A stretch of 37,325 nucleotides of DNA. Source: a virus (Duplodnaviria; Caudoviricetes). The notes under the pieces are model-generated. The model saw only the letters and a list, made by a program, of their open reading frames with translations, searched no databases and had not been told where the DNA came from. The stretch covers positions 1 through 37,325 of the IMG/VR virus record IMGVR_UViG_3300032283_000266, one strand, 5' to 3'. Shown here piece after piece: positions 3,646-33,929 of this stretch. The translations under genes and the position numbers were made by a program. Every line of letters starts with the position of its first letter. Positions within the stretch are counted from its first letter, which is position 1.

Positions 3646-6150
3646 TCAGGATAGAGCGATTACAAGGCCAAGGCTTACGCCTGCGCTTGGTGTACTCCAA
3701 GTTAGTGTACCAGAACCATTAGTTCGAAGCACCTGCCCGTTAGTCCCATCGCTTGCCGGTAGCGTCCAGGTTACATTTGCAGCCACTGTCGCTGGCGCTT
3801 GGAACGCAACATAGTTGCTGCTATCAGAATCAGCAAAACGCAAATCGCCTTGCGCATTAAGCGTTATGTCGCCGGTAACAGTCACAAGCCCTGCACTGCT
3901 AATCCTCATCCGCTCCGTCGGACTGTTTGCCCCGTCGGTGGTAGTGGAAAACACTAAGCGGCCAGGCATGTCGTCAGCGCCGGGAGTGCCGTCTACTTCG
4001 CAGGTAACAGCCGCCCCGGTCTGATTAAGATCAAAGCCATCAGCACCAGCGAATCTAATCTGTCCAAGTGTGTCGCCAGATTGAACAACTGTGATTCCGC
4101 CAACTGAGTTTGAGCGGCTTTTGCCTAGGATTAAGTAAGAGCCATTTGTGTTCGCCTCATTGTTAACAATTGCAAAAGTTGAGCTTGCAGCGCCAGCCCC
4201 ATCCAGCAGGAATTGAGGGGAATAAAAGCCAACGTCACGCACACTGGACGTACCAAGTAAGAGCCTGCCAAAGCTGTCAATGGTTGCTCGCTGAGTGCCA
4301 CCAGTTGAGATAGCAAATTGGTCTGCGCCAGGGCTGTAAATGCCGGTATTTAAATCTCCATTAAAAGACAAACCAGGCAACAACACCGTCCCCAACGTAA
4401 TGCCAACAGGGCCAGCGAAAATAACGTTTTGGCTGCCGCCGCTGCTGCTAACACTAATTGCTGCAACGCCGCCAGTCGTAACGCTTAAATTATCTGCTCC
4501 TGTACTAAATAATCCAGTATTGGGATCTCCGCTAAAAAATAACCCAGGCAACAACGCCGTCCCTAGCGTGATACCAACGGGGCCGGTAAAGGTATCGCCG
4601 CTTTTTGAAATTAGATTGCCGGTAGCTGTTACACCGCCTTGCCATGCACTGCCGTTATAGACACGCAGTTCGTTGTTTGTTGTATTGAATACTAAATCGC
4701 CTGTGTCCAGGCTTGTCGTAGGGTCACTAGCCGCAACCCTGTATTGATTAGCAAAGCTATTTACAGAAGCAAGGTTTGTTGCAACGGTGTCTACGTTGGC
4801 AATACTTCCGCCGACAGCGTTGACGTTGGCAATGTTTACAGCAACAGTGTTGATCTCGCTGACTGGCTCGTTTAGATCATCAGCGACAGTGGTTACGTTT
4901 GCGCTGTTAGTAGCGACAGTGGTTATGTTCGCTGAAATGGCTGCAACGGTTGTGACTTCTGTTGCTTTTGGTACAAGCCGGTGGAAGCTATAGGTATTAA
5001 ATGTTGCAGTCGTCTCAACCAGCACGCCAAACCCAGCTGCTAGTACGGTCGTACCGCAACCAGTAATTATGACTGTGTTGCTGCCTTGGCCGTTGGAGAT
5101 ACTTACCGTGCCAGTCGTTGGCGTGCGGCTTGTAACCATCTCCTTAATGCTTACAATCGTTCCTGCGCCGTCATTAATGTCAGGGTTAGCAGCGGGGAAG
5201 CTGGTCTCGTTCGTAATGGGGAAGAACCCGCCTACGTCGTCAACTAAGTCAATAACCCGAGCGTCAATAGCTGCAGTCGTAGCAATAAAAGAATCGCTAG
5301 AACTCCATGGGTCACCGCTAGATATAGTCTCGGAAGTGTCTTGACGGAAGAATCTTGCGTCTGTTGCCGACGTGGTAAAAAAGCTTGTGTCGTTTGCAGT
5401 TGCAGCTGACTGTTCTGCCGCCGTAACAACAGCAGCCCCATTCATTTTTGCAACTGTTATTGAACCATTGAGGATATTTTCTACCTGCACAGCATCGTCA
5501 GCCAACTTGGCGTTGGTAACCGCATCAGCAGCTAACTTAGCTGTCGTAACATTTAGGTCTGTGATGTTAGCTGTTAACGCTGCAAACGTATCAACATAGT
5601 TTTTAGTTGCAGCGTCAGTGCTAATAGTTGGCGTGCCAAGCCCAGTAATTTTATTTGTGCCCATTGCCAGGGCCCCAGTCATGCTGTCACCAGCCTTGCT
5701 AACCTTTAACGCATCGGCAGTATCAACGTAAGATTTAGTCGCAGCGTCTTGGGCACTAGTTGGGTTTGCAACGTTGGTTATACGCACGCTGCCAGCTGTC
5801 AACAAACCGGTCGTGGGGTCAACGTTAACTGTTTGTTTTAATGCGTCGTCTAGTTCTTGTTCAATATATAAATTTTGCAGCGCCGTCGTATCCAGATCAG
5901 CTGCAACTAAAGTTGAGCCATCGGTATAATCCACCAGTACGTTGGCTAACGGTGTAATCCGTCGCACCTCTACCCGTAAAGAAGCCGCAGGGGCAGTTGC
6001 CACCTGAACGGTTGTGTTATTAACGTAGGTGTAAGCAGTATCAACAAAGTTAACAAAGACCTTAATGTGCTCCTTCCTGATGTAGGGATAGGTAATGGCA
6101 AACTGAGTGGTGGACCCGTTGCCCGTGTAAACCGCAGAAGAATAAGGCAT
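3646..6150 (-). CDS. Tail fibre protein (T7 gp17-like N-terminal attachment domain)
   Basis: YTGNGSTTQFAITYPY..VRRITP..DYTDGSTLVAADL N-terminus; two DAATKxYVD motifs; 10-aa coiled repeats; duplicated ~57-aa module; position after gp16. Confidence 0.9.
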   Translation of the reverse strand: MPYSSAVYTGNGSTTQFAITYPYIRKEHIKVFVNFVDTAYTYVNNTTVQVATAPAASLRVEVRRITPLANVLVDYTDGSTLVAADLDTTALQNLYIEQELDDALKQTVNVDPTTGLLTAGSVRITNVANPTSAQDAATKSYVDTADALKVSKAGDSMTGALAMGTNKITGLGTPTISTDAATKNYVDTFAALTANITDLNVTTAKLAADAVTNAKLADDAVQVENILNGSITVAKMNGAAVVTAAEQSAATANDTSFFTTSATDARFFRQDTSETISSGDPWSSSDSFIATTAAIDARVIDLVDDVGGFFPITNETSFPAANPDINDGAGTIVSIKEMVTSRTPTTGTVSISNGQGSNTVIITGCGTTVLAAGFGVLVETTATFNTYSFHRLVPKATEVTTVAAISANITTVATNSANVTTVADDLNEPVSEINTVAVNIANVNAVGGSIANVDTVATNLASVNSFANQYRVAASDPTTSLDTGDLVFNTTNNELRVYNGSAWQGGVTATGNLISKSGDTFTGPVGITLGTALLPGLFFSGDPNTGLFSTGADNLSVTTGGVAAISVSSSGGSQNVIFAGPVGITLGTVLLPGLSFNGDLNTGIYSPGADQFAISTGGTQRATIDSFGRLLLGTSSVRDVGFYSPQFLLDGAGAASSTFAIVNNEANTNGSYLILGKSRSNSVGGITVVQSGDTLGQIRFAGADGFDLNQTGAAVTCEVDGTPGADDMPGRLVFSTTTDGANSPTERMRISSAGLVTVTGDITLNAQGDLRFADSDSSNYVAFQAPATVAANVTWTLPASDGTNGQVLRTNGSGTLTWSTPSAGVSLGLVIALS

Positions 6151-9100
6151 CAGCGTAAAGCCTCCACAAAGTTGGAAAGGTTAGGTTGCCCGTATGTTGC
6201 CCTATATTGCACGTCTTTGTTGAGCCCGTCTATATAGTTTAGCTGGCGGGTGAGCGCTGGGTTCTGGTTCTCGTACAGCTGCTTGCCTCTTTGCTTAAAG
6301 CTGCTAATCACTCCATCAATTATTGTGGCTCTTGCACTAGCGTTTTGAGAACTGATCTCTTCCTGTGGCTGGGATCTGTAATGGTCAGACTCCATTGTCT
6401 CTTGTAACGCTTGGTACAAGTTCCGGCCAAATTCATCCCTAACGTAAGCCGTTAGCTCAATGTATTTGTTGTATTCACGGGGGCTAAGCCGGTTTTGCTT
6501 ACCCCAATCCTCAGCTGTAGGGCCTTTAAACTGAGCGCCTTTGCCGTGTAACAACGCCATTTCCTGCAGCACAGGGTCAATTTTAGGCCCTCTAGACATT
6601 GGTGACCATGGCATAAACTGCATTACAGCGCCCATCCATGGGTACTCAGGCGGTAAAAATTGATCGCCCATAATCCCTGACAACACAATTGGTTGGCCTG
6701 TAATCCAATTTAACCGTGGCGGTAAATTTGTTGACCAACCAGGAATCAGGTTTGCAAGTTCGCCCCTGGTCTCCTCAAACATGCGCATTGGCATACCGCC
6801 TAACCCGCCTTCCACGTCGCTTGGTTCTACTATTCGGGTATATGGATCAGCAATACGCCGAGTTGATCTTAAAGCAGAGCTGAAAGGGGTTAGGGATACA
6901 ACAAGGCGAGAGATATACCGTTCAAGTGGGTTGCGCTTATTTGGGCCTTGCTCCATTTGATCCATGCCAGTTAACGTTTCATACAATTCAGTAAATCCTT
7001 GGTAATAAGTTTTGCTTAATTGGCCTGCTGCTACAGCAGCAAGTAGATCCATTGTCAAGCCAGAACCCATTTGCTCTCTTGCTTCTTTTGGTAATTTATT
7101 TGCCACTTCAATGTAATCAGCGACTCCACCAAACAAACTAGCAAAAGGTTCAAAAGCCCTCATTGAATAATATTCGCTATAAATTGGCAGATCGTTTTCG
7201 TCTGTACCAATACGCACCCGGAAGGAATAAGGCGTCTTACCTTCATCCCTCCACTTTTGTTTTGCAGCAGGGTCTTGCGGGCCGCCGCCAGTGAATTGAG
7301 CTACACCTTGCGACATTGCGATAACAGTTAACGCTATCGCTCCAGTCCCCACCGCTACATCGCCTATTGCTCTGTCGCGTGTCATTGGATCAGTTGAATT
7401 TATATCACGCCAAAAGGTGTCAACAAATAGATTTACGCCAGGTGTCATCCGTGCTGCACTTTTTACAATGTCGCCAGGTGTGCGGTTAAAGGGCTGGATT
7501 ATAGAAAACACTGGGGCAAGGTTAATTAAATTTTGCCACACTAAAGGCATTGCGCTAAATGTTCTTGCAAAGAAAGGCATCTCATCACCTGCCATTGCGC
7601 CACCAGGTTCAAATTCAGCCATGATATCGTCAGTAAAAGTTGCATAGCGCATGGCTGTTTGCGCATGAGGCGAAGTCATTACAGCGTCAAGGATTGTGCG
7701 ACCATCAACAACAACGTTTTTGGTTGCTCCATTAACAGCTGCTTGAGAATATTCTTTAGCAAAATCCCATGCTTCTTGGCTGCCTTTTGGCATTCCCATT
7801 TCCTGTGCACGGTTTAAACCAGGCTGTAAATTGCGAACATATTCAAATGACGACCCAGCTAAAGTTTTAAAATAAGTGTCTAAAGCTACTTGAGTGCGGG
7901 TCGATAAATTTAAAGCTTGCCACATTCTTTTCTGTGCCATTGCCCACATTGATTTATCTTGTATATCAAGCCAAGGGGTAGTGTTAAGGGTCCATTCGCC
8001 ACTGCCTTGATATTGCCGCTCAACTCCTTGCTCAAGCATTGTTGCTTGCTCAGCTTGGGCGACAGCGTCTTGCCGCACTGCCTTGTCCAGGAAATCGACG
8101 GTGGTGTCATCAAGGTCATACAACCCACGCCCGGCTTTAAATGACTCCGTACCCAGCCTGTAAGCCTCTGACAAATTTTTGACATATTGGCCATATATCA
8201 TCATAGATTGGCCGGCTCTATTGAAATCAAGCTGCAAGCCTGCGCCAAGAGCTTGCGACACTGGCAGTTGAACCAACCGAATAACGTTGTTTATGGCGTT
8301 ACCCCACATTGTTGCTCCAGAAGACAACAGCTGGGCGGCACGATATACAACCAAGCCTCTTGAACCAATGCCAATATTTTTATTAATTTCAGTCCAAAAA
8401 CCCTTAGCAAACCCAGGGGTGACTGCTGCTTGGGCCATTGATCTTGCTAGCTGGTCGATCTCTTGCATTACCTTGGGCGACCCATAATCTCCAGTCCTAA
8501 TTGCTTGCTCAGCTTCTGGGCTTAATGCTTTGCCAATAGATTCGTCTATTGGGATGCCTTCATTAGCTGTCAGCCATTTCTCAATGTCAGCGCCAACATC
8601 TGCGTTGGTGAATGACAACGTGCCTGGTTCTGGTCGCTGGCCTTGCAGGCTGTAAAGCAATTGGCCAATAGGTCTAGTAATTCCTTCTAAAGCTGAAACT
8701 ACTGATTTCTGTTCCGCAGCTGCTGTTAACAGCTCAGCAATTAATTGGTTCATGTCAGAGCCGCTGTCGGCACCAGCATTTAAGAATCTATTAGCTGCAA
8801 CACCAGCTTCGTAGTTACGGGCATCGGTAAGAAGTTGCAAAGAACGTAATGCAACTAGGTTGCGCTCATAGTTCTTTAGTTCCCCGCTAAGGGGCTTTAA
8901 CGTATTAAGAATTGCTTTTGAATTGTAGCCATGTGAGTTAAGCCACTTATCAGCCCTTATAGCTATTGTTGCGTTATTTGTTACTTGGTTGCCAGTCAGT
9001 TCGACTCTGCTCATTACGTCGCTAAATGCACGGTAAGCAGCTACTGCTTCTTCTGGAATTGTTGGAACGTAAACCGTTGCGCCGCTACGGCTTTCAAACC

Positions 9101-10970
9101 GTTGCACATTATTTTCTAAGAGATCTTCAATCTCAATTTCACCAGAGTCAATAGCTTCTTTATTAGCTATGTATTGATCCATAAACCGGTTTGTCCATGC
9201 TTCGTCAAAAGCTGGAGGCTTAACGTTCTCTGGTGGCTCTGGTGGCACGGGCGGTAAATCACCGCCATCAGGTGGCACCGGCGGCAAGTCTCCACCGTCG
9301 GGAGGTAAAGGTGGCAAGTCTCCACCGTCACTAGGCACCGGCGGCATGTCCGCCTCCTCAAGAGAAGTTGGAGGCAGATCGAGGGGAGCTGTTTGCGGAT
9401 CGAGGGGAGCTGGTGTTGGGGCCAGGGTTGTCGTTGGGTTTGGGTTGTACGCTTCTAAATACGCATTGCGCACTTTTTCTACTTCTGGTGTGAACCGACC
9501 AGTAGATAAATCATTTAGTGCTTGCGTTATTGGCAATTCAGCAATATCTTCGGCAATAAACCGTTGGCCTTTGTCTTGTACAGCTTTTATTGCTTGGAGT
9601 ATATCTATTTGGTTCTCAGGCGTTTGGCCTGCGTTAAACCATTTTTTAAAAAGTTCAGCGGAACTATTCTCTTTTGCTTTGGTTAATTTGCGAAACGAGG
9701 TGTCAGGCAAGACAATATTGTCAATTGTTACGATTTGCCTGGGTGCGGGAGCAGCAGCAGCAGCAGGAGCAATTGCTGAAGGCGCCCCAATGGCTTGTGG
9801 GCTTGGTGTCTGCAGTGCTGGATCTAGCGCCCGCCCAGGAACCGGCGGCTCTATTGCAGCAGCAGCCACATTCCCCATCGGTTGCACTGCTGTGCGGGGA
9901 AGGACCGGCGGTAATGGTGCAATGGGAGGTAATGGTGCAATTGGCGGCAGTATCGTCTGCTGTCTAACAACAGCCTCCTCCAAATTATTGTTGGCAGTTA
10001 CGGCTACAGGTAGCAGTTGCGCTCTCCTTGCTTCTGTTGGTGCTCCTTGTACGGCTTTTGTTGTTTGTACTGCTTTGAAGAAACGGAAAGCAACTTCAGC
10101 TCCAGTACCAAAAAGAGCTCCTTCAATAACGTTTTTAAACCTGCCGTCTAAGCCCACGTCTCTAGGGTCAGACTTTAAATAATCAACAGCTATATGTTTT
10201 AACGGCCCCATCTGCTCAAGCAGATCTGTTAGCCGTCCTTCGTATTGATCAAATGCAGCAAAATCAATTGCGGCACCAGTCGCGGCGGCTTTAGTAAGTG
10301 TGTTCTCTGCTATTGATTTACCAACAATTGCGGCACCAGGGACTTTGCTAATTTGCTGTACTGCCTTAGTCGCTTTTACAGCTTGCGTTGCCGCTTGCGT
10401 TGCACCTGTGACCTTGCTGGCACCAGGCAACATAGATAAGCCTTTACCAACAAGACCTACTCCTTTTGCTACTGGAACCCAAGACAGTGCAAACTGACCA
10501 ATACCAACAGCTAGGTCTTCAGCCGGGCCACTGCTTTTGGCTTTAGGCAGCGGAGGCATGATGCCTAGGAATGGCGCATCTGGCCTTTTAGCAGACGTAG
10601 GAGACGGCCTCCCTTGGATCTTGGCAATTGCTTCAGTACCAACATCGCTTAGTTCTTGAGCCGTATTACGCACGGTGCTGTAACCCATGCGTGTCAAACC
10701 ACGGGCAGCTCCAATAAGTGCACTACTTTCTTGGCCGCGATCATTTAGATCTTTAGCAAAACTTTGCAAGCCGGTTTGTACAGCTTGGCCCAAATTGGCT
10801 AAAGGATTATTAGACGGTGCAGGGGCAGCAACAGAAACAGGCTTTGGTGCAGGGGCCGCAATAGGTTTAGGTGCGGGCTTAGGTGCAGCCGGAGTTGCAT
10901 TAGCCGTAGGAAGCACATACTCTCTAGTGACTAAACCGGTTGTTGGATCTTTGGTTTCAACGTATGGCAT
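6150..10970 (-). CDS. Internal virion protein D (gp16-like ejection protein), 1606 aa
   Basis: Largest ORF, T7 synteny between gp15 and the fibre; PFxRTPxxI motif in the C-terminal half. Confidence 0.8.
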   Translation of the reverse strand: MPYVETKDPTTGLVTREYVLPTANATPAAPKPAPKPIAAPAPKPVSVAAPAPSNNPLANLGQAVQTGLQSFAKDLNDRGQESSALIGAARGLTRMGYSTVRNTAQELSDVGTEAIAKIQGRPSPTSAKRPDAPFLGIMPPLPKAKSSGPAEDLAVGIGQFALSWVPVAKGVGLVGKGLSMLPGASKVTGATQAATQAVKATKAVQQISKVPGAAIVGKSIAENTLTKAAATGAAIDFAAFDQYEGRLTDLLEQMGPLKHIAVDYLKSDPRDVGLDGRFKNVIEGALFGTGAEVAFRFFKAVQTTKAVQGAPTEARRAQLLPVAVTANNNLEEAVVRQQTILPPIAPLPPIAPLPPVLPRTAVQPMGNVAAAAIEPPVPGRALDPALQTPSPQAIGAPSAIAPAAAAAPAPRQIVTIDNIVLPDTSFRKLTKAKENSSAELFKKWFNAGQTPENQIDILQAIKAVQDKGQRFIAEDIAELPITQALNDLSTGRFTPEVEKVRNAYLEAYNPNPTTTLAPTPAPLDPQTAPLDLPPTSLEEADMPPVPSDGGDLPPLPPDGGDLPPVPPDGGDLPPVPPEPPENVKPPAFDEAWTNRFMDQYIANKEAIDSGEIEIEDLLENNVQRFESRSGATVYVPTIPEEAVAAYRAFSDVMSRVELTGNQVTNNATIAIRADKWLNSHGYNSKAILNTLKPLSGELKNYERNLVALRSLQLLTDARNYEAGVAANRFLNAGADSGSDMNQLIAELLTAAAEQKSVVSALEGITRPIGQLLYSLQGQRPEPGTLSFTNADVGADIEKWLTANEGIPIDESIGKALSPEAEQAIRTGDYGSPKVMQEIDQLARSMAQAAVTPGFAKGFWTEINKNIGIGSRGLVVYRAAQLLSSGATMWGNAINNVIRLVQLPVSQALGAGLQLDFNRAGQSMMIYGQYVKNLSEAYRLGTESFKAGRGLYDLDDTTVDFLDKAVRQDAVAQAEQATMLEQGVERQYQGSGEWTLNTTPWLDIQDKSMWAMAQKRMWQALNLSTRTQVALDTYFKTLAGSSFEYVRNLQPGLNRAQEMGMPKGSQEAWDFAKEYSQAAVNGATKNVVVDGRTILDAVMTSPHAQTAMRYATFTDDIMAEFEPGGAMAGDEMPFFARTFSAMPLVWQNLINLAPVFSIIQPFNRTPGDIVKSAARMTPGVNLFVDTFWRDINSTDPMTRDRAIGDVAVGTGAIALTVIAMSQGVAQFTGGGPQDPAAKQKWRDEGKTPYSFRVRIGTDENDLPIYSEYYSMRAFEPFASLFGGVADYIEVANKLPKEAREQMGSGLTMDLLAAVAAGQLSKTYYQGFTELYETLTGMDQMEQGPNKRNPLERYISRLVVSLTPFSSALRSTRRIADPYTRIVEPSDVEGGLGGMPMRMFEETRGELANLIPGWSTNLPPRLNWITGQPIVLSGIMGDQFLPPEYPWMGAVMQFMPWSPMSRGPKIDPVLQEMALLHGKGAQFKGPTAEDWGKQNRLSPREYNKYIELTAYVRDEFGRNLYQALQETMESDHYRSQPQEEISSQNASARATIIDGVISSFKQRGKQLYENQNPALTRQLNYIDGLNKDVQYRATYGQPNLSNFVEALR
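9241..9350 (-). repeat. 30-bp coding tandem repeat, ~3.5 copies (PPVPPDGGDL)
   Basis: MPPVPSDGGDLPPLPPDGGDLPPVPPDGGDLPPVPP in the gp16-like protein; 30-nt period visible in the DNA. Confidence 0.9.
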
Positions 10971-10972
10971 GG

Positions 10973-13807
10973 CTAAATACCTCTCATAAATCGTTGTGCT
11001 GCTTTGAAGTCTATCCCTCTCTCAAGGCCAGGTAATGACTTGCGTACTGTCGTTCCGTTGCTGTCAGCCCAATCAAGACCGCCTCTAGCAATGTTGCTTA
11101 CGTTGCCGGTAAGGATTGCTGCGTAAATTTCTTTAGCCCCATGGCCAGGCTTAACTCCGCGATCTTTTAAATACCTAACTACAGGACCAAGCATTTGTTG
11201 CTCAAACGTTTGGTTGGCGTTGTAGCCATAAGTCCTTCTTTCTGTAGGGCCAAACTGGATTAAACCTTGATAATTGCCACCTTCGCCGCCTTTAACAGTT
11301 GCTTTAAAGCCACTTTCTTTGTGTATTACAGCCGCAAGAACAATTGGGTCTATCCCTAACTGTTGGGCAGCCTCTCTGATAGCTGCAGCTTTACCTGTAA
11401 CATTGCCTGTTGGCGCAGGCAGAATTGGGTTTGCTGGTGGGTTAAGGGACGGGCTTGACGTGTTCTGCATTGCACTCCACATACGTTGTGCTCGTGCCAT
11501 ATCAGGTGTAATCATTCCCAACCCCATAGAGCCTCCTCCACTTACTGGAAGGGTCAAGGAAACCTTATCAAGTTCTTTTAGTTTCTCTTGCACTGGGGCA
11601 GGAAGTGGTTTGCCTGGGGCGTGCTTGTCATTTTGTTGCGTGAAATACTCCAATGGTGTAACCCCTAGACGCCTAATAATTTCTTTAGTGGTGCCGTCTA
11701 ATGGTTTGTTTCCCATGATATCGTCTAATTGTTTCCCAAAGATTGGTTCTGGGTATAGCGGCCCTGAACGATAGTTGCGCTTTACTTCCGCTGACGTCCG
11801 GTCTAATTTAGTCTTTACAGTTTCAGGCGTAGCGTAAGCTGGCTGCAGCTCTCTTCGCTGTGCTCTTTGCTGCTGTGGGGCAGTAGCTTTTAAGTACAAA
11901 TCATTTAAGTCATTACTTATATCAGCGCCCTTGGCTTTTTGTATAAGCTCAGTAGTTTGTCTGCGGTACTCACCGATTCGGTTGCTAATCTCAACGTTTT
12001 CCGCGGGGCTAATGCCAGGTTTTTTATCCCCATATCCAGAGGTTTCATATTCTTTTGTAAGCCTTGCCCTTAAATCTTTTTCGTTTTGATTTGCAAGTTT
12101 AAAGTTTGCGTTGTTAGCAGTGTCCATTCTTGCCTTTGCTGTATTTGTTAAGCGGGTATAGTCTTCTTGGCTAAGCTCGCCGCGTTCTTGTGCCCTTGCG
12201 TATTCGACCAACTCTTTCGCTGGCGTTGTTGTCGTCGGATCTCGCTGGTCAAATTCCCGTGCTTTAGCTTCTTGCACAGGCTTAACAACTGTTAAAGCCT
12301 TATTAGAGTACAAGTCCCCTAACGTTGCTAAATATGAGCTTAATCGCTCTGGATTATTTGCATAAGTTATTTCAGCTTGCCTCCTTAAATACGCAATTGA
12401 ATCCATTACTTGGCCCGGAGTTCCCATTGGGGCTGCTTTTACGTCATTAACAGCTGCGTCTTTCCCAATCGTGGCTTCGTTTCTATCAGAATCCGCTCTA
12501 TCGGCATTAAGACCTTTATTCATACCCCGAGCTATGTAAAGCGCTACTGCTTCAGGTGTCATGCCAAGTTGATTTATAAGCGGTTCTCCGTTAGGCCCGG
12601 CTGGGGTTTGATGCAGAGATTTAATTATATTGGGGATAAGGTTTTCTATTATTGCGGTACGGTTTGGTCTATTGCCTACGGCGGCAAGAGCACTTTCAAT
12701 AAGCCTGTCAGGCAATGTTGATTTTACGGTTTGGTATTGCCCAGGAGTTCCGCCTCCCTGTTGGAACCCATCCAGGCTCGCACCTAGTTTTCCGGCAAAG
12801 CCTTCAGAACTAATTGTGCCTGACGCTAATTCCGTCATGCTGCCACCTAACCCAACGTTAAATCCATTGAATAGTTTCTCGTCAGAATGTTTGGCATAAC
12901 GTGCGATTTGATCGCTATTAACCGAACCCATAAGGGCTTGAAACTGGGATTGATTCTCAAAGAAAGCCTTAGGCGTTGTATTGGCAGGTACAGCTAAACT
13001 CCGTTGCCATTCAATAAGTGCTGGGTCATTAGGAGGTACAGTCTCTAAAAGCCGACCGTCAGGCAATTTCTTTGTGTATGCAATTGTATTTTTAACTTCT
13101 GCCATCCTTTGCTTAAAATTTGAGTCGCCTAATTGCTCATTAAAATATCGTTGGCGTCTTGGGTCTAATGTTTTTAATAAATTCAAATCCGCTGCTCTTG
13201 TTGGGTCTACTGCTGCAGCCTTTTCTGCTGCAGCCAGCGCTTCCTTATAGCTGGTGTAACCCAACCCAGAGAATTGCGCTGCGACTTGCGCTCCTTCTGA
13301 AGCTGCTTTCTTCTCTTCTTGTTGACCTACTTCTTGGAATGTACGGCCAACTTGTTGTAAGTTTTGGTTGAATGACGATAACGCTTGAGCAAGATTAGCT
13401 AGGTCTTGATTTGGTTTAGGTTGTTCTGGCAGCCTAGGTAGCGCTGGCATTCCAGGTAAACTTATAAGCCCCGGTAATTCAGGAAGGCGCGGTAAATTTG
13501 GCAGGCTTGGCAAACTAGGATTACTTGGGATGCCTTGCATCTCAGTTGGCCTTGGCAATGCCGGTGCCCGAGGCAAGTTAGGCAATGCCGCCATTGAAGG
13601 TATCTTTGTTGGACCCCCAAGAGTTGGTGCGCCAACCGTTTGGTTTGTATCTACAGGTTTTGCTTGAGCCCTAAGAGCCGGCGTTGCTATTGATTGCTGC
13701 GCTAAGGCCCCGGCACTAGCTACCTCAGCAAGGCCGCCAAGTAATCGTTGCGCGGTTTCAGCGCCCGGGATCTTGCCAGTAGTTTGACCAGTACTAAGTT
13801 TTGCCAT
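10973..13807 (-). CDS. Internal virion protein C (gp15-like) with C-terminal lytic transglycosylase (SLT) domain
   Basis: Synteny; C-terminal AAQQLGIDPIVLAAVIHKESGF..GLIQF matches SLT motifs I/II. Confidence 0.8.
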   Translation of the reverse strand: MAKLSTGQTTGKIPGAETAQRLLGGLAEVASAGALAQQSIATPALRAQAKPVDTNQTVGAPTLGGPTKIPSMAALPNLPRAPALPRPTEMQGIPSNPSLPSLPNLPRLPELPGLISLPGMPALPRLPEQPKPNQDLANLAQALSSFNQNLQQVGRTFQEVGQQEEKKAASEGAQVAAQFSGLGYTSYKEALAAAEKAAAVDPTRAADLNLLKTLDPRRQRYFNEQLGDSNFKQRMAEVKNTIAYTKKLPDGRLLETVPPNDPALIEWQRSLAVPANTTPKAFFENQSQFQALMGSVNSDQIARYAKHSDEKLFNGFNVGLGGSMTELASGTISSEGFAGKLGASLDGFQQGGGTPGQYQTVKSTLPDRLIESALAAVGNRPNRTAIIENLIPNIIKSLHQTPAGPNGEPLINQLGMTPEAVALYIARGMNKGLNADRADSDRNEATIGKDAAVNDVKAAPMGTPGQVMDSIAYLRRQAEITYANNPERLSSYLATLGDLYSNKALTVVKPVQEAKAREFDQRDPTTTTPAKELVEYARAQERGELSQEDYTRLTNTAKARMDTANNANFKLANQNEKDLRARLTKEYETSGYGDKKPGISPAENVEISNRIGEYRRQTTELIQKAKGADISNDLNDLYLKATAPQQQRAQRRELQPAYATPETVKTKLDRTSAEVKRNYRSGPLYPEPIFGKQLDDIMGNKPLDGTTKEIIRRLGVTPLEYFTQQNDKHAPGKPLPAPVQEKLKELDKVSLTLPVSGGGSMGLGMITPDMARAQRMWSAMQNTSSPSLNPPANPILPAPTGNVTGKAAAIREAAQQLGIDPIVLAAVIHKESGFKATVKGGEGGNYQGLIQFGPTERRTYGYNANQTFEQQMLGPVVRYLKDRGVKPGHGAKEIYAAILTGNVSNIARGGLDWADSNGTTVRKSLPGLERGIDFKAAQRFMRGI
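13412..13600 (-). repeat. Polyproline-II-type array, 7x9 aa (residues 70-132 of gp15-like)
   Basis: Pro at 76, 85, 94, 103, 112, 121, 130, with hydrophobic-Pro-x triplets. Confidence 0.8.
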
Positions 13808-14952
13808 TATCGAGACTGCTTATAAACAGACGCAGCAGTCCCAACCAATGTGCCAGCACCTTCCAATATGTACGGTGTAGCGCTTGGGTCGGCTTGCTTC
13901 TGTCCTTTTATTGGGGCGGCCATTGGGATTGGAGCCATGGGAGTCATTGCTCGCAAAGGTTTAATAGGAGCCATGCCCTGAATTGGCTTCAGTGGATCTA
14001 ACGCTAGTATCGGCGGTAACGGAGCAATTGCTAGTATTGGCTTCATTGGGTTTAATGCCGCAATCGGTTTCATTGGATCAAGGATAGGCTGCCTGATATA
14101 AGCTTGCTGGCTAGCAATCCTGGAACCTCTAGTAGCAGCAGCCCCAAGTTTTTCTGCTTGCACTTGAGCTGTCGCAAACGCCAAATTACGGTCGGTTGCA
14201 AAATCAAATTGCGCTTGTTGACGTTCATAATTAGCGATCAAGCTTTCAATAGAATTCCCAACTCGGCCTGCCGCCCTTACGGAACCGCTAGCTTCCATCG
14301 CTTGGATGTTTGCTTGTTGCTTTTGTTGTGCTGCAACTTCTTGCTCTTGCATCAATCTAAGATTCAATGACCCCACTTCGTTTGCGTAAGCGCTGTCAGC
14401 TATTAGCCTTGTCTGTTGTATTAACGCTTGCTGTTGATCAAACCGTAAGTCTTCGTAGCTTTGTGCAGTTGCAGTCTGCATTTGCTGGTATTGGTAACCT
14501 TGCTGAGCGGCAAAATTAGCGTAGTCTGTCTCTTCTTTCTCTTGGAAGTATTGCTGCTCAACTTGAGCGTTAGCAAACTTTGTATTCTGTTGATTTTGAA
14601 AATATTGTTGCTTGATCTGGCTATTAACATACGATGTATTCTGTTGCGCCTGGAAGTAATCCTGGTCTGCCCTGGCATTAGCGTAAGCAGTGTCTTGCTG
14701 CGCTTGAAAGTACTGCCGATCTGCCTGCGCGTTAGCGTAAGCTTCTTCTTGTTTCGCTTGGAAATACTGCCGTTGCGCTTGGCGGTTAGCAGCGTCAACG
14801 TCTAGTTGCGTTTGGAAATAATCCATGTCAGCTTGAGCATTAGCAAAAGCAACATTGCTTTTTGCTTGCTGGTACGAGGACATTTGGCTACCAATGCCCA
14901 ATCCCCCCTGAACAACGGTGCTTGTAATACCAACGCTGACTGGATCACACAT
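13807..14952 (-). CDS. Internal virion protein B (gp14-like), repeat-expanded, 381 aa
   Basis: MCDP start with Gly-rich hydrophobic N-terminus, central A.G..GNS motif, hydrophobic C-terminus; synteny. Confidence 0.8.
   Translation of the reverse strand: MCDPVSVGITSTVVQGGLGIGSQMSSYQQAKSNVAFANAQADMDYFQTQLDVDAANRQAQRQYFQAKQEEAYANAQADRQYFQAQQDTAYANARADQDYFQAQQNTSYVNSQIKQQYFQNQQNTKFANAQVEQQYFQEKEETDYANFAAQQGYQYQQMQTATAQSYEDLRFDQQQALIQQTRLIADSAYANEVGSLNLRLMQEQEVAAQQKQQANIQAMEASGSVRAAGRVGNSIESLIANYERQQAQFDFATDRNLAFATAQVQAEKLGAAATRGSRIASQQAYIRQPILDPMKPIAALNPMKPILAIAPLPPILALDPLKPIQGMAPIKPLRAMTPMAPIPMAAPIKGQKQADPSATPYILEGAGTLVGTAASVYKQSR
13885..14082 (-). repeat. 9-aa Pro-rich array in gp14-like protein (residues 291-356)
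   Basis: PMKPI/PMKPI/PLPPI/PLKPI/PIKPL/PMAPI/PIKG; Pro every 9 residues from 293 to 356. Confidence 0.9.
14473..14874 (-). repeat. 18-aa (54-bp) helical array in gp14-like protein (residues 27-160)
   Basis: Tyr at 27, 45, 63, 81, 99, 117, 135, 153; Asn at 38, 56, 74, 92, 110, 128, 146; YFQ occurs six times. Confidence 0.95.
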
Positions 14953-15424
14953 GATTTACCTTGCAGAACTCCAGGAATAAACGACCTTCTACTCCCCAGT
15001 CTGGCCGTTTTGCAATAAAGGTAAACCCCATCCATTCAACCCAGCGGCGGTGCACAGCATTACGAGCATCCATGTAATTCCACAGCACGTCGTATTCACG
15101 GTGCATAGCATTTACCCAAGACCTACAACCTCTTAAGAACCGCATACGGTTAGTCGTATTCTCCACCAACGCATCAGTACCCAGCAACCATATTTGGCCT
15201 ACCCGGCTATTGAGTTCGTCTGGCACGACACCGCCCATTGCTAATGGTTCCCCTTGACTTGACACCATTGTGATGCATGGTTTGCCTTTCATGTAGCTAT
15301 GCAGCAACCCCACCCGTGGCTCCAGCCCGCTATTGGCTTTTACCTCAGCAACATCAGCAGCCCTCATCCGGTCTGCTATCCAAGCGATATCAGCTACAAC
15401 TGTTGACCTGAGTGGCGGGATCAT
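14945..15424 (-). CDS. Internal virion protein A (gp13-like, GNAT acetyltransferase-like fold)
   Basis: MRAADVAE..IWLLGT..LWNYMDARN..RWVEWMGF; start at 15424 chosen from the ATGA overlap with tail tubular B. Confidence 0.8.
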   Translation of the reverse strand: MIPPLRSTVVADIAWIADRMRAADVAEVKANSGLEPRVGLLHSYMKGKPCITMVSSQGEPLAMGGVVPDELNSRVGQIWLLGTDALVENTTNRMRFLRGCRSWVNAMHREYDVLWNYMDARNAVHRRWVEWMGFTFIAKRPDWGVEGRLFLEFCKVNHV

Positions 15425-17835
15425 AATCGTTGAGATCTGGTGTGGTAAAACCCTTCCCATTCGGCCGATTGAAAACGGCAAGGCAATGGGCTGCTGCTTG
15501 CCAATTGAATGACAGCGCTTATGTTTTCGGTCATTACGGGTACTCTAAACCTACCGGTAGCAACGCCAGGGGAACCAAGCAACGAGTTATCGCCAGGCAC
15601 TATTGCGTTGTAGGGGTAAGTGTTGGTGTCCCGTCCCTTTGGCGTAATCTTTATCTCAAAAGCCGAGGTGATATCAAATATCATGGTCCATGTACGCAGC
15701 TGCAACTTCGGCCCTGCTGCAATTGCAATGCCTCCGCCAGGTGGTTGCTCCTTTATGTATTGAGTGCTGAACTCGTACAGAAGATCGTACAACTCGCCTA
15801 CAAAAAACTTAGCTGCAGTCAAGTCGCCTCTTACGACCAAGGTGCCATTGCCGCCTGTGCCCCCTGCCAACGTCTGGCTGATAGGAATCAACACTTGGCC
15901 ATGTTGGACCGTATTGCCTGCAAAGAAGCGCCCTACAACCGCCATTGAGCTGGTGTTGTTGATTGGATACGGCAACGTAATAGTTGATTGAACGTCAAGA
16001 CCAGCCGGGTTTGTTAACGCTACGGTGCAATTAGCTTCTGTTGTCTTACGATCTAACAAGATCTCAATGTTAGTGCCAGCATCAACTGTTTCTGGACGCA
16101 GCGAGACACGTTCTAAGTAAACGCCGTCGGCATATTGGACGGTTAAGAACAGATCACTGTCAAGTACGTCAGCACCAATTATTTCTTTAACGCCTTCCAT
16201 CTCCCAGTACGACCATGCTGACTGCAACTTAGAGTCGTCTTGAAAGAAGAACTTGTATAAATACACTCGCCTTGGTTGGGTCTTACTAAGCAGCACCAAG
16301 CCTTCTTCTGATACAGTTGCGGTCATAGAACATATATTGTTCGGGATATAACGGGGGATAGCAGACGTAACTTCTTCCGACACAGGAGCAGGGCCGCTGC
16401 TATCTGGCAGGAAGAACTCCCTCACGCCAGTGTTATCACCTTTAGGTACAGCAAAGAAAATAGTACGGCCTAAAGCTATAGGGTCAACTGAATCAAGCAT
16501 CTCAAAAGTAGTAAGAGATGAAATGCTGGCTGTTTTAGGTGTCAAAGCTGCAGCAACGTTGCCAGTATCTAGCCGGAATTGGCTGTGACGGCTAAATAAC
16601 AACAACGAGTTAGCAAAAGCCAGGCTGCTAACGAGAAAGTTAATTTCTTGGCCGCCTGTTGCAATATCAATAGGATCGCTGTCAATAACAGTTTGCACTG
16701 TTTCCGGCCAGAAGCGGTCGTAAGAATCAGTAGCAGACAGAATTACGTTTTCGTCAGCTAGAAACGCCAAGCGATTCCTAAATAACTGTATGTTCTGAAT
16801 CTTGCTGCCAACAAAGCTTGGGTCAGGGGCCGTATCTACGTCGCCAGCCACTCGGCCTGACCAAGGGAAAACTTCAAAGGTAAACGTATCGTTAGCATTG
16901 CGTATAAGCACATGCGGCATTGTTGTTGCATCAAACAAATACGGGATGTTTGGGGCTACTGTCTCACGCCAAATGCCATGGCCAAACCCGCTGCCTGTAT
17001 TGGTTTCAAACTTTACGTAGTAATTATCTAGGCCGGTGGACTGGCTGCCTAAGACCTCTACAGTAAATCCATGTTCAGCAATAGTAGGTAAGTCCGACAA
17101 TGTATCGACTGTTCCTTTAATTGATATTGTCATTGCCCCGCTACGGGTATCTTTAGAGCTAAGCGTGTACGCTCCACCGTCTGCTTTAGTAATGCGGACA
17201 ATGTAGTCAGTACTTGTTACTGTGAAACTTCCGCCTAAAGCTGCTTGCAATGAAGCCGCAAGGTTGGTCGCAATTGTTACATTGCTTGGTGCGTTGCCAC
17301 CTGAATTCTGGGTTGTTTCTGTAACCGTAGTGGAATTAACAGTAATAGAATACGTCGTTGCATAATCAGCTGTCTTGATAAACACCATACTCTTGGTGCC
17401 CCAGTTAGTTGACAGCGTTCCTGCCATAACCGCGGTCTTTTCACGATTGACAATAAACGTGTAGTCAGCAATTGACGCTACCCTAAAAGCTGAACTTGGC
17501 TCTCCAGTAACAGTAAGGTAATTAAAGTTAGTAGTAGCGGTAACAGTTTTAACAGAACCATCTAACCCAAATACTTTCAACGCACCGTTTTGAATGAATA
17601 CTAAGTACTTAATTGTGCCGTCACGATCAACAATATGGGTAAAGGGCCTAGTTGCACCGGCACTACCGCTAATGATTTTGGCAAGGTTGTAGCAAGGTGG
17701 TCGTTTCTTTAGCCCTTCAACTGGGCTTGGCATACAGTTAATAACTTTTTCTGCTTGAGAAGCAAGGCGCAAAGCCGCTGGTTGCTGGCTTACCCCATTA
17801 ATCAAATTAGGAATTGAGCTACTGACCAGTGGCAT
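15421..17835 (-). CDS. Tail tubular protein B (gp12-like nozzle)
   Basis: MPLVSSSIPNLINGVSQQP, GLKKRPP, TMPHVL, FRNRLAFL, DSDPID, QSAWS motifs; 804 aa. Confidence 0.95.
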   Translation of the reverse strand: MPLVSSSIPNLINGVSQQPAALRLASQAEKVINCMPSPVEGLKKRPPCYNLAKIISGSAGATRPFTHIVDRDGTIKYLVFIQNGALKVFGLDGSVKTVTATTNFNYLTVTGEPSSAFRVASIADYTFIVNREKTAVMAGTLSTNWGTKSMVFIKTADYATTYSITVNSTTVTETTQNSGGNAPSNVTIATNLAASLQAALGGSFTVTSTDYIVRITKADGGAYTLSSKDTRSGAMTISIKGTVDTLSDLPTIAEHGFTVEVLGSQSTGLDNYYVKFETNTGSGFGHGIWRETVAPNIPYLFDATTMPHVLIRNANDTFTFEVFPWSGRVAGDVDTAPDPSFVGSKIQNIQLFRNRLAFLADENVILSATDSYDRFWPETVQTVIDSDPIDIATGGQEINFLVSSLAFANSLLLFSRHSQFRLDTGNVAAALTPKTASISSLTTFEMLDSVDPIALGRTIFFAVPKGDNTGVREFFLPDSSGPAPVSEEVTSAIPRYIPNNICSMTATVSEEGLVLLSKTQPRRVYLYKFFFQDDSKLQSAWSYWEMEGVKEIIGADVLDSDLFLTVQYADGVYLERVSLRPETVDAGTNIEILLDRKTTEANCTVALTNPAGLDVQSTITLPYPINNTSSMAVVGRFFAGNTVQHGQVLIPISQTLAGGTGGNGTLVVRGDLTAAKFFVGELYDLLYEFSTQYIKEQPPGGGIAIAAGPKLQLRTWTMIFDITSAFEIKITPKGRDTNTYPYNAIVPGDNSLLGSPGVATGRFRVPVMTENISAVIQLASSSPLPCRFQSAEWEGFYHTRSQRL

Positions 17836-20749: not shown

Positions 20750-22382
20750 CTTGTGTGTAGTTTTTAACCAATTGGCCTAAAGCGGGTGACTTCAAGCCTT
20801 GGCTTAAAGTGTTCATCTGTTGTTGCTGTTGCATCTGCTCGTTAGCCGCTGAGGCTTCGCCGTCAAGTTGCTCTTTCGTCTTAACCAAATTGGTAGTGTC
20901 GATAGATTCACTGTTGGCTAAACGCCGCAACGCCTCGTCTACATTAATGTATTTCTGCAATACTTCTGGCCCTAACGCTTGGCCGATAGTAGTTAAGAAG
21001 TCTACCAATTTGTTTCTATCGTCACCACGCCCAATGGCTTCAAGGCCAGTAACAGGTTTAGGATTAACTAAAGCTTTACCTCCTTCGCCTTTGGGGAAAG
21101 CCGGTAACTTGCGTTGCTTACGCATGACGTACATTAAGCGACGCACTAACGGCAGCTGTAACTCCTGCGTAAGGATTGAGTACAAGCCACCGATACCAGC
21201 TTCTAATTCCTGGCTCATGTACTTGATCTCTTGCGCTGTTACCCGTTCACCTGGCCGTTGGATAGCAGTATTAAGTAGGAACGCAAATTGAAGGCGGCCT
21301 TCAATACGTTCGATAATGCTGGTTGCAATAGATAGGTCTTGCGCTTTCTCGCTTTGGATAACAGTTACGTCAGCTGCATTGCCTTGGATGATTGCACCGT
21401 TAGGGGCATTAGCCAAAGTGCGTGGACGTGTAGTGCCGTTAGGGTTTACAAGGAATAAGATCTTGGCCGCGGCTGCACTACCTTCAAGCACTGCTTGGTA
21501 TAGCGATTCAAGTGCCAACAAATCACCGTAATATTCTTCAACGTAACCGCGCCCATACTCTTCTCCGTCCACACGGTTAAACCGCAGTGGTATCCATGGT
21601 GATACGTCAGCGTCACACATGCCGTGAGTATTAGGGATCTCCTTGCCATAAGCTTCTTGATACCAGTGCACCTTGCCTTCTTCGTATTCAACGTGGGTGT
21701 AAAGCTTGCAAGTCTTTTGGCTCGCGTACCCTTCCTTGTCAGAATCGTCTTGGCTTTTTACTTCATCTAAGAATCCTTCAGGTAATACTTCAGGATAAAC
21801 TTCTTCTTCTACTACGATTTCGCTGACGTTCCCCATGGGATCACGGCTTAACGCATAACGGTTGAGGTGTATTACACGGAAGCCTTCCTCCGCTACATAC
21901 AACAACACGTTGCCGCCAACTAATAAATGTTTAAACGCTTCGTGCATGGACGCACGGCCATTAGCCGTCTCCATCGCTGACATAACTGCGTGCTCTACGT
22001 TGACTAGAGCGCTATCAAATTCTGCCTTAATTTGTGGTCCATTTTCTGTAGCACGTAGGACAAGATCATCAATTTCTAGCTTGAAGAACGCAGCGTTAGG
22101 CGGGAACAGGGTAATCAGTAACTTACTGGCCAAGTAGTTAACGCCTCTTGCCCCAAGCGATTGGTACGGGGTCTTAAGACTGCCGCGATCCTTTTCGCCT
22201 GAGTCAGGTATCAAGGTAGGGATGGTCACCTTGCTGCAATCTCTTGCCCGTTGCAGGTACACATCACGCATAGAGACCAACCGCTGGTATCTAGCAGCTG
22301 CGGTTATCCCGCTTTCATAGTCTTTCATCTCAGCAGCCGTATGCGATTGCCGGTCTACGTTGCTGGTTAGTTTTAAGTTCAT
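20610..22382 (-). CDS. Portal / head-tail connector (gp8-like)
   Basis: PYQSLGARGVNYLASKL..LFP, GEEYGRGYVEE, ERVTAQEI, GLEAIGRG motifs. Confidence 0.97.
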   Translation of the reverse strand: MNLKLTSNVDRQSHTAAEMKDYESGITAAARYQRLVSMRDVYLQRARDCSKVTIPTLIPDSGEKDRGSLKTPYQSLGARGVNYLASKLLITLFPPNAAFFKLEIDDLVLRATENGPQIKAEFDSALVNVEHAVMSAMETANGRASMHEAFKHLLVGGNVLLYVAEEGFRVIHLNRYALSRDPMGNVSEIVVEEEVYPEVLPEGFLDEVKSQDDSDKEGYASQKTCKLYTHVEYEEGKVHWYQEAYGKEIPNTHGMCDADVSPWIPLRFNRVDGEEYGRGYVEEYYGDLLALESLYQAVLEGSAAAAKILFLVNPNGTTRPRTLANAPNGAIIQGNAADVTVIQSEKAQDLSIATSIIERIEGRLQFAFLLNTAIQRPGERVTAQEIKYMSQELEAGIGGLYSILTQELQLPLVRRLMYVMRKQRKLPAFPKGEGGKALVNPKPVTGLEAIGRGDDRNKLVDFLTTIGQALGPEVLQKYINVDEALRRLANSESIDTTNLVKTKEQLDGEASAANEQMQQQQQMNTLSQGLKSPALGQLVKNYTQDGAPYGPQFSEQGVPNRLPDIASQQQLPGGVPPGQELPGGTPPPLG

Positions 22383-23050
22383 TAAACGGCAGGGATGGAT
22401 AAGCCACCGACTCCGCCGGCTCTATCAATGCGCAGCTTCTTGCGACCAAATCCTTGGCGTATTTTGGCTGCGCCTGTTCCGACGCCGGTTCGTTGGGCCG
22501 CGTCGGCTGCAGTTAAAGCTGACGCTGCTGAACCTGCAACTGGGGCAGGTGGTGGTGGTGGTGGCGCTTGTTGTATTTGTAGTTGTTCTTTGTATCGGGC
22601 CTGCTGCTCATCTCTGAATTCTTGTTGTTGCGCCCTTGAACTTTCTTGCGTTTGTCTTATCAGATCCGTCATTTGCTGCTGATAAGCGCTTTGAGAAGAT
22701 TGCCTTTCTGCACTTTGCTGGGTTTGGTACGCTTGCTGCTGTTCGTATTGCTTTTGCTGCATAGCCATGTAATCAGCTTGTTGTTGCTGTATCTGCGCCT
22801 GTTGCGCTGCCATCGCTTGGGCTTGCTGGTCTCGCTGCGCTTGCGCCTCTGCCATTATGCGGTTCTGATCTGCCCTATAAATTTCCTGTTGTTGCGCTGC
22901 TTGTGCTTCTTGGGCGGCGCGTTGTGCATTAGCTGCTTCTTCTTGCTGCCGTTGCGCAACAATTTGATTATTGCGCTGCATGTTTGCGGCTGCTTGCTGA
23001 TAAAGCATTGCCTCTTGATTTGGTTTTGGAGCTGCGCCACCGAAACACAT
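22382..23050 (-). CDS. gp6.7/7.3-like virion ejection protein with long Gln/Ala helical insertion
   Basis: MCFGG start, poly-Pro, GRKKLRID..GLSIP end; directly upstream of portal; residues 11-162 contain no Pro. Confidence 0.75.
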   Translation of the reverse strand: MCFGGAAPKPNQEAMLYQQAAANMQRNNQIVAQRQQEEAANAQRAAQEAQAAQQQEIYRADQNRIMAEAQAQRDQQAQAMAAQQAQIQQQQADYMAMQQKQYEQQQAYQTQQSAERQSSQSAYQQQMTDLIRQTQESSRAQQQEFRDEQQARYKEQLQIQQAPPPPPPAPVAGSAASALTAADAAQRTGVGTGAAKIRQGFGRKKLRIDRAGGVGGLSIPAV

Positions 23051-23990: not shown

Positions 23991-24216
23991 AGCAATCTCC
24001 TGAATAAAGAACAGAACCTTTTAACTCGAACGTGGAACGGGTTTTACCTTCAGTAAACCCATGCGTTACGGCTTCAGCCGGTATGGGCACTTCGGCTGTG
24101 TACCAACGGTGATCACAGGCAGTGCAATGCCTACGTCTAATAACAGTGTTGTTTGAATCAGTGCGGGTGTGGCGAGCGCGGACGCCTGGCTCATCACCGC
24201 AGGAGGGGCATTTCAT
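23974..24216 (-). CDS. NrdR-like zinc-ribbon protein without ATP-cone
   Basis: MKCPSC..IRRRHCTACDHRWYTAE parallels the NrdR N-terminus MxCPxC..RRRRxCxxCxxRFTTxE; only 80 aa. Confidence 0.7.
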   Translation of the reverse strand: MKCPSCGDEPGVRARHTRTDSNNTVIRRRHCTACDHRWYTAEVPIPAEAVTHGFTEGKTRSTFELKGSVLYSGDCYDTFD

Positions 24217-33927: not shown

Positions 33928-33929
33928 TT

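Follow-up and report, generated by a model that had tools for sequence, protein, structure and literature searches.

Length-matched repeat insertions in the gp14-like and gp15-like ejection proteins of a podovirus and a predicted longer DNA-ejection tube

The ejection locus and its phage

The window, the whole stretch of DNA that was analysed, runs to 37,325 bases; the record is complete and has terminal repeats. The window carries on its minus strand the genes for a nozzle, gp13, gp14, gp15, gp16 and a fibre, an order that is expected for a gp14-like locus. The nozzle gene (gp12-like, 15421..17835, PF25675), whose product is the predicted seat of the gp14 hairpin, and the gp13-like gene (14945..15481, PF11090 and phrog_308) are followed by those encoding a gp14-like ejection protein of 381 aa (13807..14952), a gp15-like ejection protein of 944 aa (10973..13807), a gp16-like internal virion protein of 1606 aa (6150..10970, phrog_6651) and a tail fibre (3646..6150) that by similarity is nearest to cyanopodovirus fibres and in which Pfam found no enzyme domain.

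The identities proposed for the two ejection proteins in an earlier note on this DNA have been borne out. The gp14-like ORF, located between the gp13 and gp15 genes, matches PF24072 with 29.4 bits (cutoff 27, aa 148-289), and gene order and homologue lengths point the same way. Its 381 aa compare with 214-263 aa in close relatives and lie outside the typical gp14 range of ~180-240 aa (181-240 aa across the 14 phages reviewed in PMC8954989), but since the gp14 of cultured phages also reaches 250-306 aa, size is no strict criterion for membership. With regard to gp15, no profile match was found, so the assignment rests on gene order, to which its size and an N-terminus common to 107 homologues can be added. 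It follows gp14, falls within the 430-980 aa range, has an unstructured N-terminal tail before the first helix and carries the optional peptidoglycan hydrolase, a C-terminal lytic transglycosylase (SLT) domain (11195..11383, PF01464, aa 809-871).

The genome resembles that of P-SCSP1u, one of the MPP-C cyanopodoviruses, in its size (37.3 kb), in the lack of a detected DNA polymerase, in a gene order with an inverted terminase and in the nozzle, which is 65% identical; P-SCSP1u differs in its gp14 of 217 aa with short geometry. As in MPP-C, the genome is within 37-38 kb, and no DNA polymerase was matched among the 33 ORFs scanned. No auxiliary metabolic genes were found among these ORFs, all of at least 60 aa. 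The endolysin matches exclusively cyanophages (105 of 105 records), and together with the fibre it indicates a likely picocyanobacterial host. The MPP-C definition includes a marine picocyanobacterial host, whereas the kin of the window occur in freshwater-labelled sequencing runs. Four loci were found in mixed metagenome bins, one of them Synechococcus, which are uninformative on the host.

Predicted fold of gp14 and repeat arrays

Both ends of gp14 are hydrophobic and predicted to insert into membranes. By hydropathy and by analogy to gp41 of Ar-KM, the N-terminal segment (14887..14931, ~aa 8-22) is a predicted outer-membrane anchor, and the C-terminal segment (13828..13872, ~aa 361-375) is a second one predicted from hydropathy. 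The alignment-based model (pTM 0.35) consists of a helix at 20-228 with one break, a turn, a helix at 235-280, a coil and a helix at 359-380, the last of which corresponds to the C-terminal hydrophobic segment and has low pLDDT. The helix break at 229-234 coincides with a conserved GRxG hairpin turn (14257..14268, aa 229-232), recognised from conserved columns. The best Foldseek matches of this model are T7 post-ejection tail entries, with a TM-score of 0.84 on the target and an rmsd of 1.9-2.3, at E values of 0.02-0.3 that are not significant; within that range of E values, one of these entries has 119 residues, as for gp14 25-143. With a profile of gp14 as query, the sequences in the PDB gave one weak match only (E 0.043).

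The two gp14 arrays reported in the earlier note were confirmed in position, count and spacing. The 18-aa array (14494..14874, aa 27-153) has eight Tyr, at 27, 45, 63, 81, 99, 117, 135 and 153, and YFQ six times; it comprises seven units, compared with one in relatives, and adds 108 aa. The lag-18 self-identity of gp14 is 0.47 (z 13.4), a value that none of 1000 shuffles reached. A single-sequence model predicts the array as helix with pLDDT ~90, and the break in the alignment-based model is a low-confidence one at 124-135. The 9-aa array (13885..14076, aa 293-356) has eight Pro spaced by nine, at 293, 302 and so on to 356, and a P-hydrophobic-x-P-hydrophobic motif six times (lag-9 z 7.0; 0 of 1000 shuffles as high). 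Here too there are seven units against one, which adds 54 aa, and the predicted conformation is an extended chain, the Pro arm being coil with low pLDDT in both models.

In gp15, the Pro-rich tether (13409..13612, aa 66-133) lies between PTLGG and QDL and measures 68 aa instead of 14, a gain of 54 aa. The 9-residue array claimed for it holds insofar as seven Pro are spaced by nine, at 76, 85 and so on to 130 (aa 69-132 correspond to nt 13412-13603). The tract is, however, essentially a PxxPxx 3-period: lag 3 has z 5.6 and the best lag, 21, has z 6.6, against z 4.8 for lag 9, so nine is no special period there. The gp14 arrays had been called exact, which is true of the residue spacing and not of the sequence; the mean pairwise DNA identity between units is 0.56, 0.48 and 0.47 for the gp14 helical, gp14 Pro and gp15 Pro arrays, respectively. 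An assembly artefact was rejected, given that all 23 long gp14 proteins measured share these arm lengths, that 19 proteins have a gp15 spacer of the same length, and that the gp14 and gp15 insertions share single 15-16 kb contigs in three of the eight sequencing runs examined.

Length co-variation among relatives

Compared with close relatives, the window has a gp14 N arm longer by 108 residues, an unchanged middle helix, a C arm longer by 54 and a gp15 tether longer by 54, which is exactly 2:1:1. The short baseline is well defined: the gp14 C spacer is 21 in 79 of 79 short-form loci, the N spacer is 59 in 65 of them (14 not measured), and the gp15 spacer is 14 in 67 of 73 loci (two long, four not measured). 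Counted by protein, the gp15 spacer is 14 in 77 of 107, the others being 19 long ones, eight not measured and three mis-anchored. The long state is constant too, in 23 of 23 proteins, whose units have diverged. Within the window clade, nothing was found with a unit number between one and seven, and the eight runs examined of the 24 listed showed no insertion of intermediate size.

A second lineage, loci L104-L107, shows +66/0/+31/+32 for N arm, middle helix, C arm and gp15, and is built from 11-aa helical and 5-aa extended units. In a quick nozzle tree (39 of 111 distinct nozzles; one gene, no MPP-A/B rows) it is separated from the window clade, whose branch is nested among short forms. Another gp14, P0288, shows +88/+41 for the N and C arms. 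In a sister lineage, smaller gp14 insertions are either matched (+7/+3 in four sequences, +18/+9 in one) or one-sided (+7/0 in three, 0/+9 in one). The insert sizes 7, 11, 18, 66, 88 and 108 are all sums of 7 and 11. With regard to the gp15 partners of the small variants, a P0004-based locus search returned short forms only, and none of the 63 proteins that a sister-lineage gp15 search returned could be paired with them; a DNA pattern for a doubled Pro unit had no viral matches and five unrelated metagenome matches. Several candidate variants were rejected: the 363-aa P0259 as a unit loss (late start call), and four apparent gp14 N-arm variants and three gp15 spacer values of 82 (anchor errors).

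Across the family, the gp14 C arm scales with the N arm with a slope of 0.510 +/- 0.015 (r 0.97) in 68 of 150 distant representatives, the other 82 rows having been dropped under a changed anchor rule; an initial regression had given 0.32, from visible mis-anchors (76 of 155). A slope of 0.51 equals the rise ratio of helix to extended chain. Independent contrasts gave r 0.96 and the same slope (0 of 5000 permutations), and the 61 short representatives alone gave 0.50. Among nine cultured phages, whose turn and helix anchors were hand-picked and which include P-SCSP1u, near-identical to one representative in the fit, the C arm lies within three residues of the fit in eight, phiKT being nine off. 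In a third family, 33 loci stand at 140/45/61 and two at 147/47/66. Among nine distant cultured phages, the length of the gp14 arm is no guide to that of the gp15 N-terminal tail (rho 0.28, p 0.47), and the three-way match therefore depends on two large events within a single phage group and a small one in another. The co-variation among homologues on which the earlier proposal was to be judged is thus present, in the window, in the separate lineage and, for the two gp14 arms, family-wide. Lock-step growth stands as the 2:1:1 ratio repeated in a second lineage, with a slack that the one-sided insertions reveal.

A longer tube outside the outer membrane

In relatives, gp14 after ejection is a hexamer of hairpins, each of which has its turn inside the nozzle and its two ends at the outer membrane, an arrangement described for T7, Ar-KM and Peru-2, where gp15 and gp16 span the periplasm. 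In Ar-KM, the lumen of gp14 is lined by the N-terminus of gp15, whose body is on the far side of the membrane. On this topology, the three sequence-unrelated insertions are predicted to lengthen the ejected DNA tube by ~16 nm between nozzle and outer membrane, probably so that the phage can fire from atop a thick surface layer. The outgoing gp14 arm would be a helix, with a rise of 0.15 nm for every residue. The returning arm would combine a helix of constant length (53 residues) with an extended Pro-rich chain, in which the rise is ~0.31 nm per residue, and the same distance would be covered by the gp15 tether. As arms and tether would share one distance, each extra 2.7 nm would cost 18+9+9 residues, and inserts whose lengths add up from 7 and 11 would leave the helix in register. 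The hairpin topology alone would force the arm lengths to match, without the packing of Tyr/Phe on Pro once suggested. Seven units are present, as previously noted, but since relatives carry one of each, six were added, and the gain is ~16 nm rather than ~19 nm. The calculation 381-126-63=192, set against the 196 aa of T7 gp14, used a wrong baseline.

The earlier note had the added length cross, for example, a thick cyanobacterial envelope, which was read here as a thick periplasm or peptidoglycan. A likely cyanobacterial host would suit this, as would the P-SSP7 extension tube, which is ~50 nm or longer (PMC5345008). Nevertheless, it is highly improbable, given that the gp14 hairpin ends at the outer membrane in all three phages named above, with gp15 and gp16 beyond, and that, relative to the predicted membrane anchors, each of the three insertions is on the side of the virion. 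The published topology places the added length outside the outer membrane, where it would bridge a surface layer; whether this barrier is an S-layer, long O-antigen or a polysaccharide coat of a freshwater picocyanobacterium is about an even bet.

Two further explanations accept part of the geometry. The repeats could have drifted longer by slippage and compensation under the same constraint, the longer tube being tolerated and not adaptive: slippage is easy in Gln-rich and PxxP tracts, some small insertions are polymorphic, and short and long forms occur together in five of the eight runs examined. Every step, however, would require three compensating changes across two genes, and the fixation of the long state in 23 of 23 proteins whose units have diverged, and of the short state in ~80 divergent loci, argues for selection on length, which makes such drift unlikely. 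It is also conceivable, though very unlikely, that only the gp14 arms are truly coupled and that the gp15 match reflects shared ancestry, chance or packing inside the capsid. The 3-periodicity of the gp15 tract and its missing correlation across distant phages would fit; against this stand +54/+54 and +31/+32 in two separate lineages, a p of 0.0015 for one such three-way match under a crude uniform model, and the structure of Ar-KM, in which the gp14 tube is lined by the N-terminus of gp15.

Comparison with known systems

The T7 gp14/gp15/gp16 ejectosome, like Ar-KM gp41/gp42 and Peru-2 P2_38, resembles the window in gene order, Pfam family, predicted hairpin and hydrophobic termini, and Ar-KM also has a peptidoglycan hydrolase on gp15. 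The window differs in that both gp14 arms and gp15 have inserts that are built of repeats and matched in length, and its gp14 N arm has 210 residues compared with 73 in T7. The repeat number sets length in the tape-measure protein of long-tailed phages, which templates the polymerisation of tail-tube subunits during assembly; in the window, the repeats would instead form the wall and tether of an infection-time tube. The suggestion of a tape-measure-like system was therefore set aside, as no long-tail genes were found and adaptor and nozzle make up a podovirus gene set, in favour of a self-measuring tube wall. The H pilot tube of phiX174 is likewise a helical, Gln-rich DNA tube of 11- and 7-residue repeats (PMC7354561), but it is a parallel decamer of one protein that passes through the cell wall in an ssDNA phage, and it has neither a returning arm nor a second protein that would need matching. 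For phiKT/PGT2 (Ermolevavirus), O-antigen-binding T7-like coliphages, a review has asked how firing from ~20 nm works and guessed at a longer extension tube (PMC10743462). The phiKT gp14 has 275 aa and an N arm 45 residues longer than that of T7; this distant phage has no repeats and a smaller gain (~7 nm).

Implications

Among the ejection proteins, gp14 is described as the most size-conserved, and podovirus tails are, to our knowledge, thought to be without length control. No prior report of a length-matched gp14/gp15 extension was found in a literature search that covered few subscription papers. If the proposed lengthening is correct, the extracellular part of the ejectosome would follow a simple geometric rule, with a natural version longer by 16 nm and a second, independent one, and the unresolved gp14 and gp15 termini would gain a place in the post-ejection structure. 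It would also offer a direct test of a published question, namely how firing from ~20 nm is achieved by T7-like phages that lack tail enzymes. In abundant freshwater cyanophages, host range would then depend on tube reach as well as on receptor binding. More broadly, T7-like podoviruses may or may not, with the balance near equal, have a tunable, self-measuring firing distance, in which the 2:1:1 rule, with independent re-lengthening by different modules, sets the thickness of the surface layer that can be crossed. In that case, reach would be readable from any gp14 sequence, would predict the type of host surface and could be changed in 2.7-nm steps.

Enlarged arrays in the gp14-like and gp15-like proteins

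The three arrays described in the earlier note are all present in the window, at the positions given there. The gp14-like protein (13807-14952, minus strand, 381 aa) carries a helical array in its N arm and a proline array in its C arm, whose periods of 18 and 9 residues score above all 1000 shuffles. In the proline-rich N-terminal tether of the gp15-like protein (10973-13807, minus strand, 944 aa), a proline does recur every 9 residues, but the tract is basically 3-periodic. Judging from the divergence of the array units at the DNA level, the expansion is old.

Close gp14 homologues are 214-263 aa long, and the spacers between their conserved anchors have a single geometry (59 and 21 residues) in 100 of 120 sequences, the remaining rows being 9 unmeasurable, 4 mis-anchored, 2 long-form (with window-type insertions) and 5 small variants. 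All 79 IMG/VR loci have a C spacer of 21, and all 65 with a measurable N spacer have 59 there; in gp15, the stretch from PTLGG to QDL measures 14 residues in 67 of 73 loci and reaches 68 in the window clade. Against this fixed short geometry the window shows gains of +108 (gp14 N), +54 (gp14 C) and +54 (gp15) residues, bearing out the co-variation of array lengths envisaged earlier, and the gp14 middle helix, from the turn to Tyr285, is constant at 53 residues. The arrays are thus enlarged as proposed, but the gain is of six units, a predicted length of about 16 nm, since each gp14 array already exists as one unit in relatives. With a rise per residue of 0.15 nm for the 108 residues and 0.31 nm for the 54, the length gained would be 16.2 nm (108 x 0.15) and 16.7 nm (54 x 0.31), respectively. 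No intermediates of the window's own arrays were found, 23 of 23 long gp14s being equal in length.

A length rule across the gp14 family

In 68 of 150 representatives, the turn-to-C-anchor distance follows the N-anchor-to-turn distance with a slope of 0.510 +/- 0.015 (r 0.97); the other 82 were dropped (37 without a turn motif, 25 without a hydrophobic segment, 19 fragments and 1 fusion). A first pass, which contained visible mis-anchors, had given a slope of 0.32 (rho 0.81), after which the anchor rule was changed so that proline-rich stretches were no longer taken as membrane segments. Independent contrasts for the two arms give r 0.96, the 61 short gp14s alone a slope of 0.50, and the rest of gp14 correlates weakly (rho 0.30). 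For nine cultured phages with turns chosen by hand (one more, unannotated locus was left out), the residues off the fit are 3 for T7, 9 for phiKT, 1 for BC, 2 for RSB1, 3 for Scott, -1 for RS-PII-1, -2 for Bf7, and 0 for both S-SRP02 and P-SCSP1u. The N arms of phiKT (locus L211, 8724-9551), RSB1 and RS-PII-1 (loci L214, L216) are repeat-free and span 114-118 residues versus 73 in T7, making these phages cultured systems suited to testing the rule.

Further long gp14s came from a profile search among 50%-identity representatives. A second lineage has helical units of 11 residues and extended units of 5, with gains of +66/+31/+32 across its four loci, which comprise two to three distinct sequences; the homologue P0288 shows +88/+41. 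A quick tree built from 39 of the 111 distinct nozzle sequences puts this lineage on a branch of its own and nests the window clade among short forms; this placement and the unrelated repeat units both argue for separate lengthening of the two. A third family, with Synechococcus phage S-SRP02, has 140/45/61 in 33 loci and 147/47/66 in two; another 18 rows gave partial measurements, and extraction yielded nothing for 10 of the 80 loci.

Small gp14 variants are matched in some cases (+7/+3 in 4 sequences, +18/+9 in 1) and one-sided in others (+7/0 in 3, 0/+9 in 1); the latter may represent tolerated slack, recombinants or assembly chimeras. The gp15 genes partnering these variants were sought and none was found. 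Among nine distant phages, gp15 N-tail length does not track gp14 (rho 0.28), perhaps because of a differing gp15 anchoring point.

Other variation in the ejection proteins

The C-terminal peptidoglycan hydrolase of gp15 (window 10973-11400) is freely swapped among close relatives (P0142, P0171, P0181, P0187, P0188), being SLT in the window and labelled PF01551, PF03330, PF01832, PF08291 or lysozyme elsewhere, even between long-form genes with a near-identical N-terminus. The gp16 middle region is hypervariable (window 6150-10970; locus L206, 13441-20601; L210, 18960-26651). At 1606 aa, the window gp16, which has short proline-rich repeats of its own, is ~800-950 aa below those of P-SCSP1u (2563 aa) and a short-form sister, where it exceeds 2386 aa, a size variation that possibly reflects cargo domains or a capsid-space trade-off. 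Four gp14 homologues (P0291, P0293, P0299, P0381) have a C-terminal Peptidase_S74-like (self-cleaving chaperone) domain, at 20.5-22.1 bits against a cutoff of 22, and P0415 looks like a fusion of gp13 with gp14 or else a frameshifted gene call.

The phage and its probable host

The window is a complete record of 37,325 bases with terminal repeats and a T7-like gene set (RNA polymerase, primase-helicase, portal, capsid, adaptor, nozzle and fibre); none of the 33 ORFs scanned matched a DNA polymerase. Its nearest cultured phage is Prochlorococcus P-SCSP1 (nozzle 65%), placed in the polymerase-less MPP-C group in the available text of PMC9860041. As in P-SCSP1u, the terminase genes (33203-35669) are encoded on the opposite strand to the remaining structural genes. 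A small NrdR-like Zn-ribbon ORF (23974-24216) adjoins the primase, and a 222-aa ORF without Pfam or PHROG matches (22382-23050) precedes the portal. A picocyanobacterial host is likely, since the endolysin matches cyanophages exclusively (105 of 105 records) and the best fibre matches are cyanopodoviruses.

The short-form sister locus is present in 20 runs from 11 studies, with mostly river, lake or freshwater labels. Long-form contigs occur in 5 of 8 runs examined, one of which possibly supplied the reference locus, with both insertions on a single contig in 3. Both forms occur together in freshwater-labelled runs (X2, X7, X8, X11, X16; reference L084), which suggests one habitat with different hosts or host surface types.

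A proposed geometry for the ejectosome

In the available parts of the structural reports, gp14 residues 25-143 of DNA-ejected T7 form two antiparallel helices inside the nozzle, with the distal end contacting LPS (PMC11784390). In Ar-KM, a membrane helix is predicted at each of the two termini of the gp14-like hairpin, which are directed outward from the nozzle, and the tube is lined by residues 5-35 of the gp15-like protein (bioRxiv 10.64898/2026.05.18.726046); Peru-2 is consistent with this layout (PMC13320782). The window gp14 model has the same hairpin layout, with an array pLDDT of ~90 in a single-sequence model, and its best fold matches, under significance, are T7 post-ejection entries. 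Three chains would span the nozzle-to-membrane distance, a helical one and two in partly extended form, an arrangement that would by itself force the 2:1:1 ratio. Judging by the matching gp14 unit sizes (18 with 9; 11 with 5), the arms may also be packed in register, possibly through direct aromatic-proline contacts, as the earlier note proposed. Its suggestion that the added length crosses a thick cyanobacterial envelope is unlikely to hold, as every insert would lie outside the membrane anchors, making the gain extracellular.

The N arm of the window exceeds that of T7 by 137 residues (~20 nm). In the text available, gp14 ranges over 181-240 aa and is the most size-conserved ejection protein (PMC8954989), and phiX174 H has repeats of 11 and 7 residues (PMC7354561). 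The accessible part of PMC10743462 describes as unclear the way in which T7-like phages whose fibres lack enzymatic activity can fire from ~20 nm, and suggests a longer tube; phiKT, with a gp14 of 275 aa and an arm ~7 nm longer than that of T7, agrees with this suggestion. Arm matching is absent from the available text of PMC10575957, PMC11445570, PMC12002296 and PMC5345008. No paper with this combination emerged from keyword searches, although subscription papers and supplements, which lay outside the search, may contain length tables or models relevant to its novelty.

The array feature is real and well replicated. It appears to represent a novel form of T7-type ejectosome, in which the geometry probably acts as a length rule for the extracellular segment; that its purpose is to reach across a surface layer is an evenly balanced proposition.
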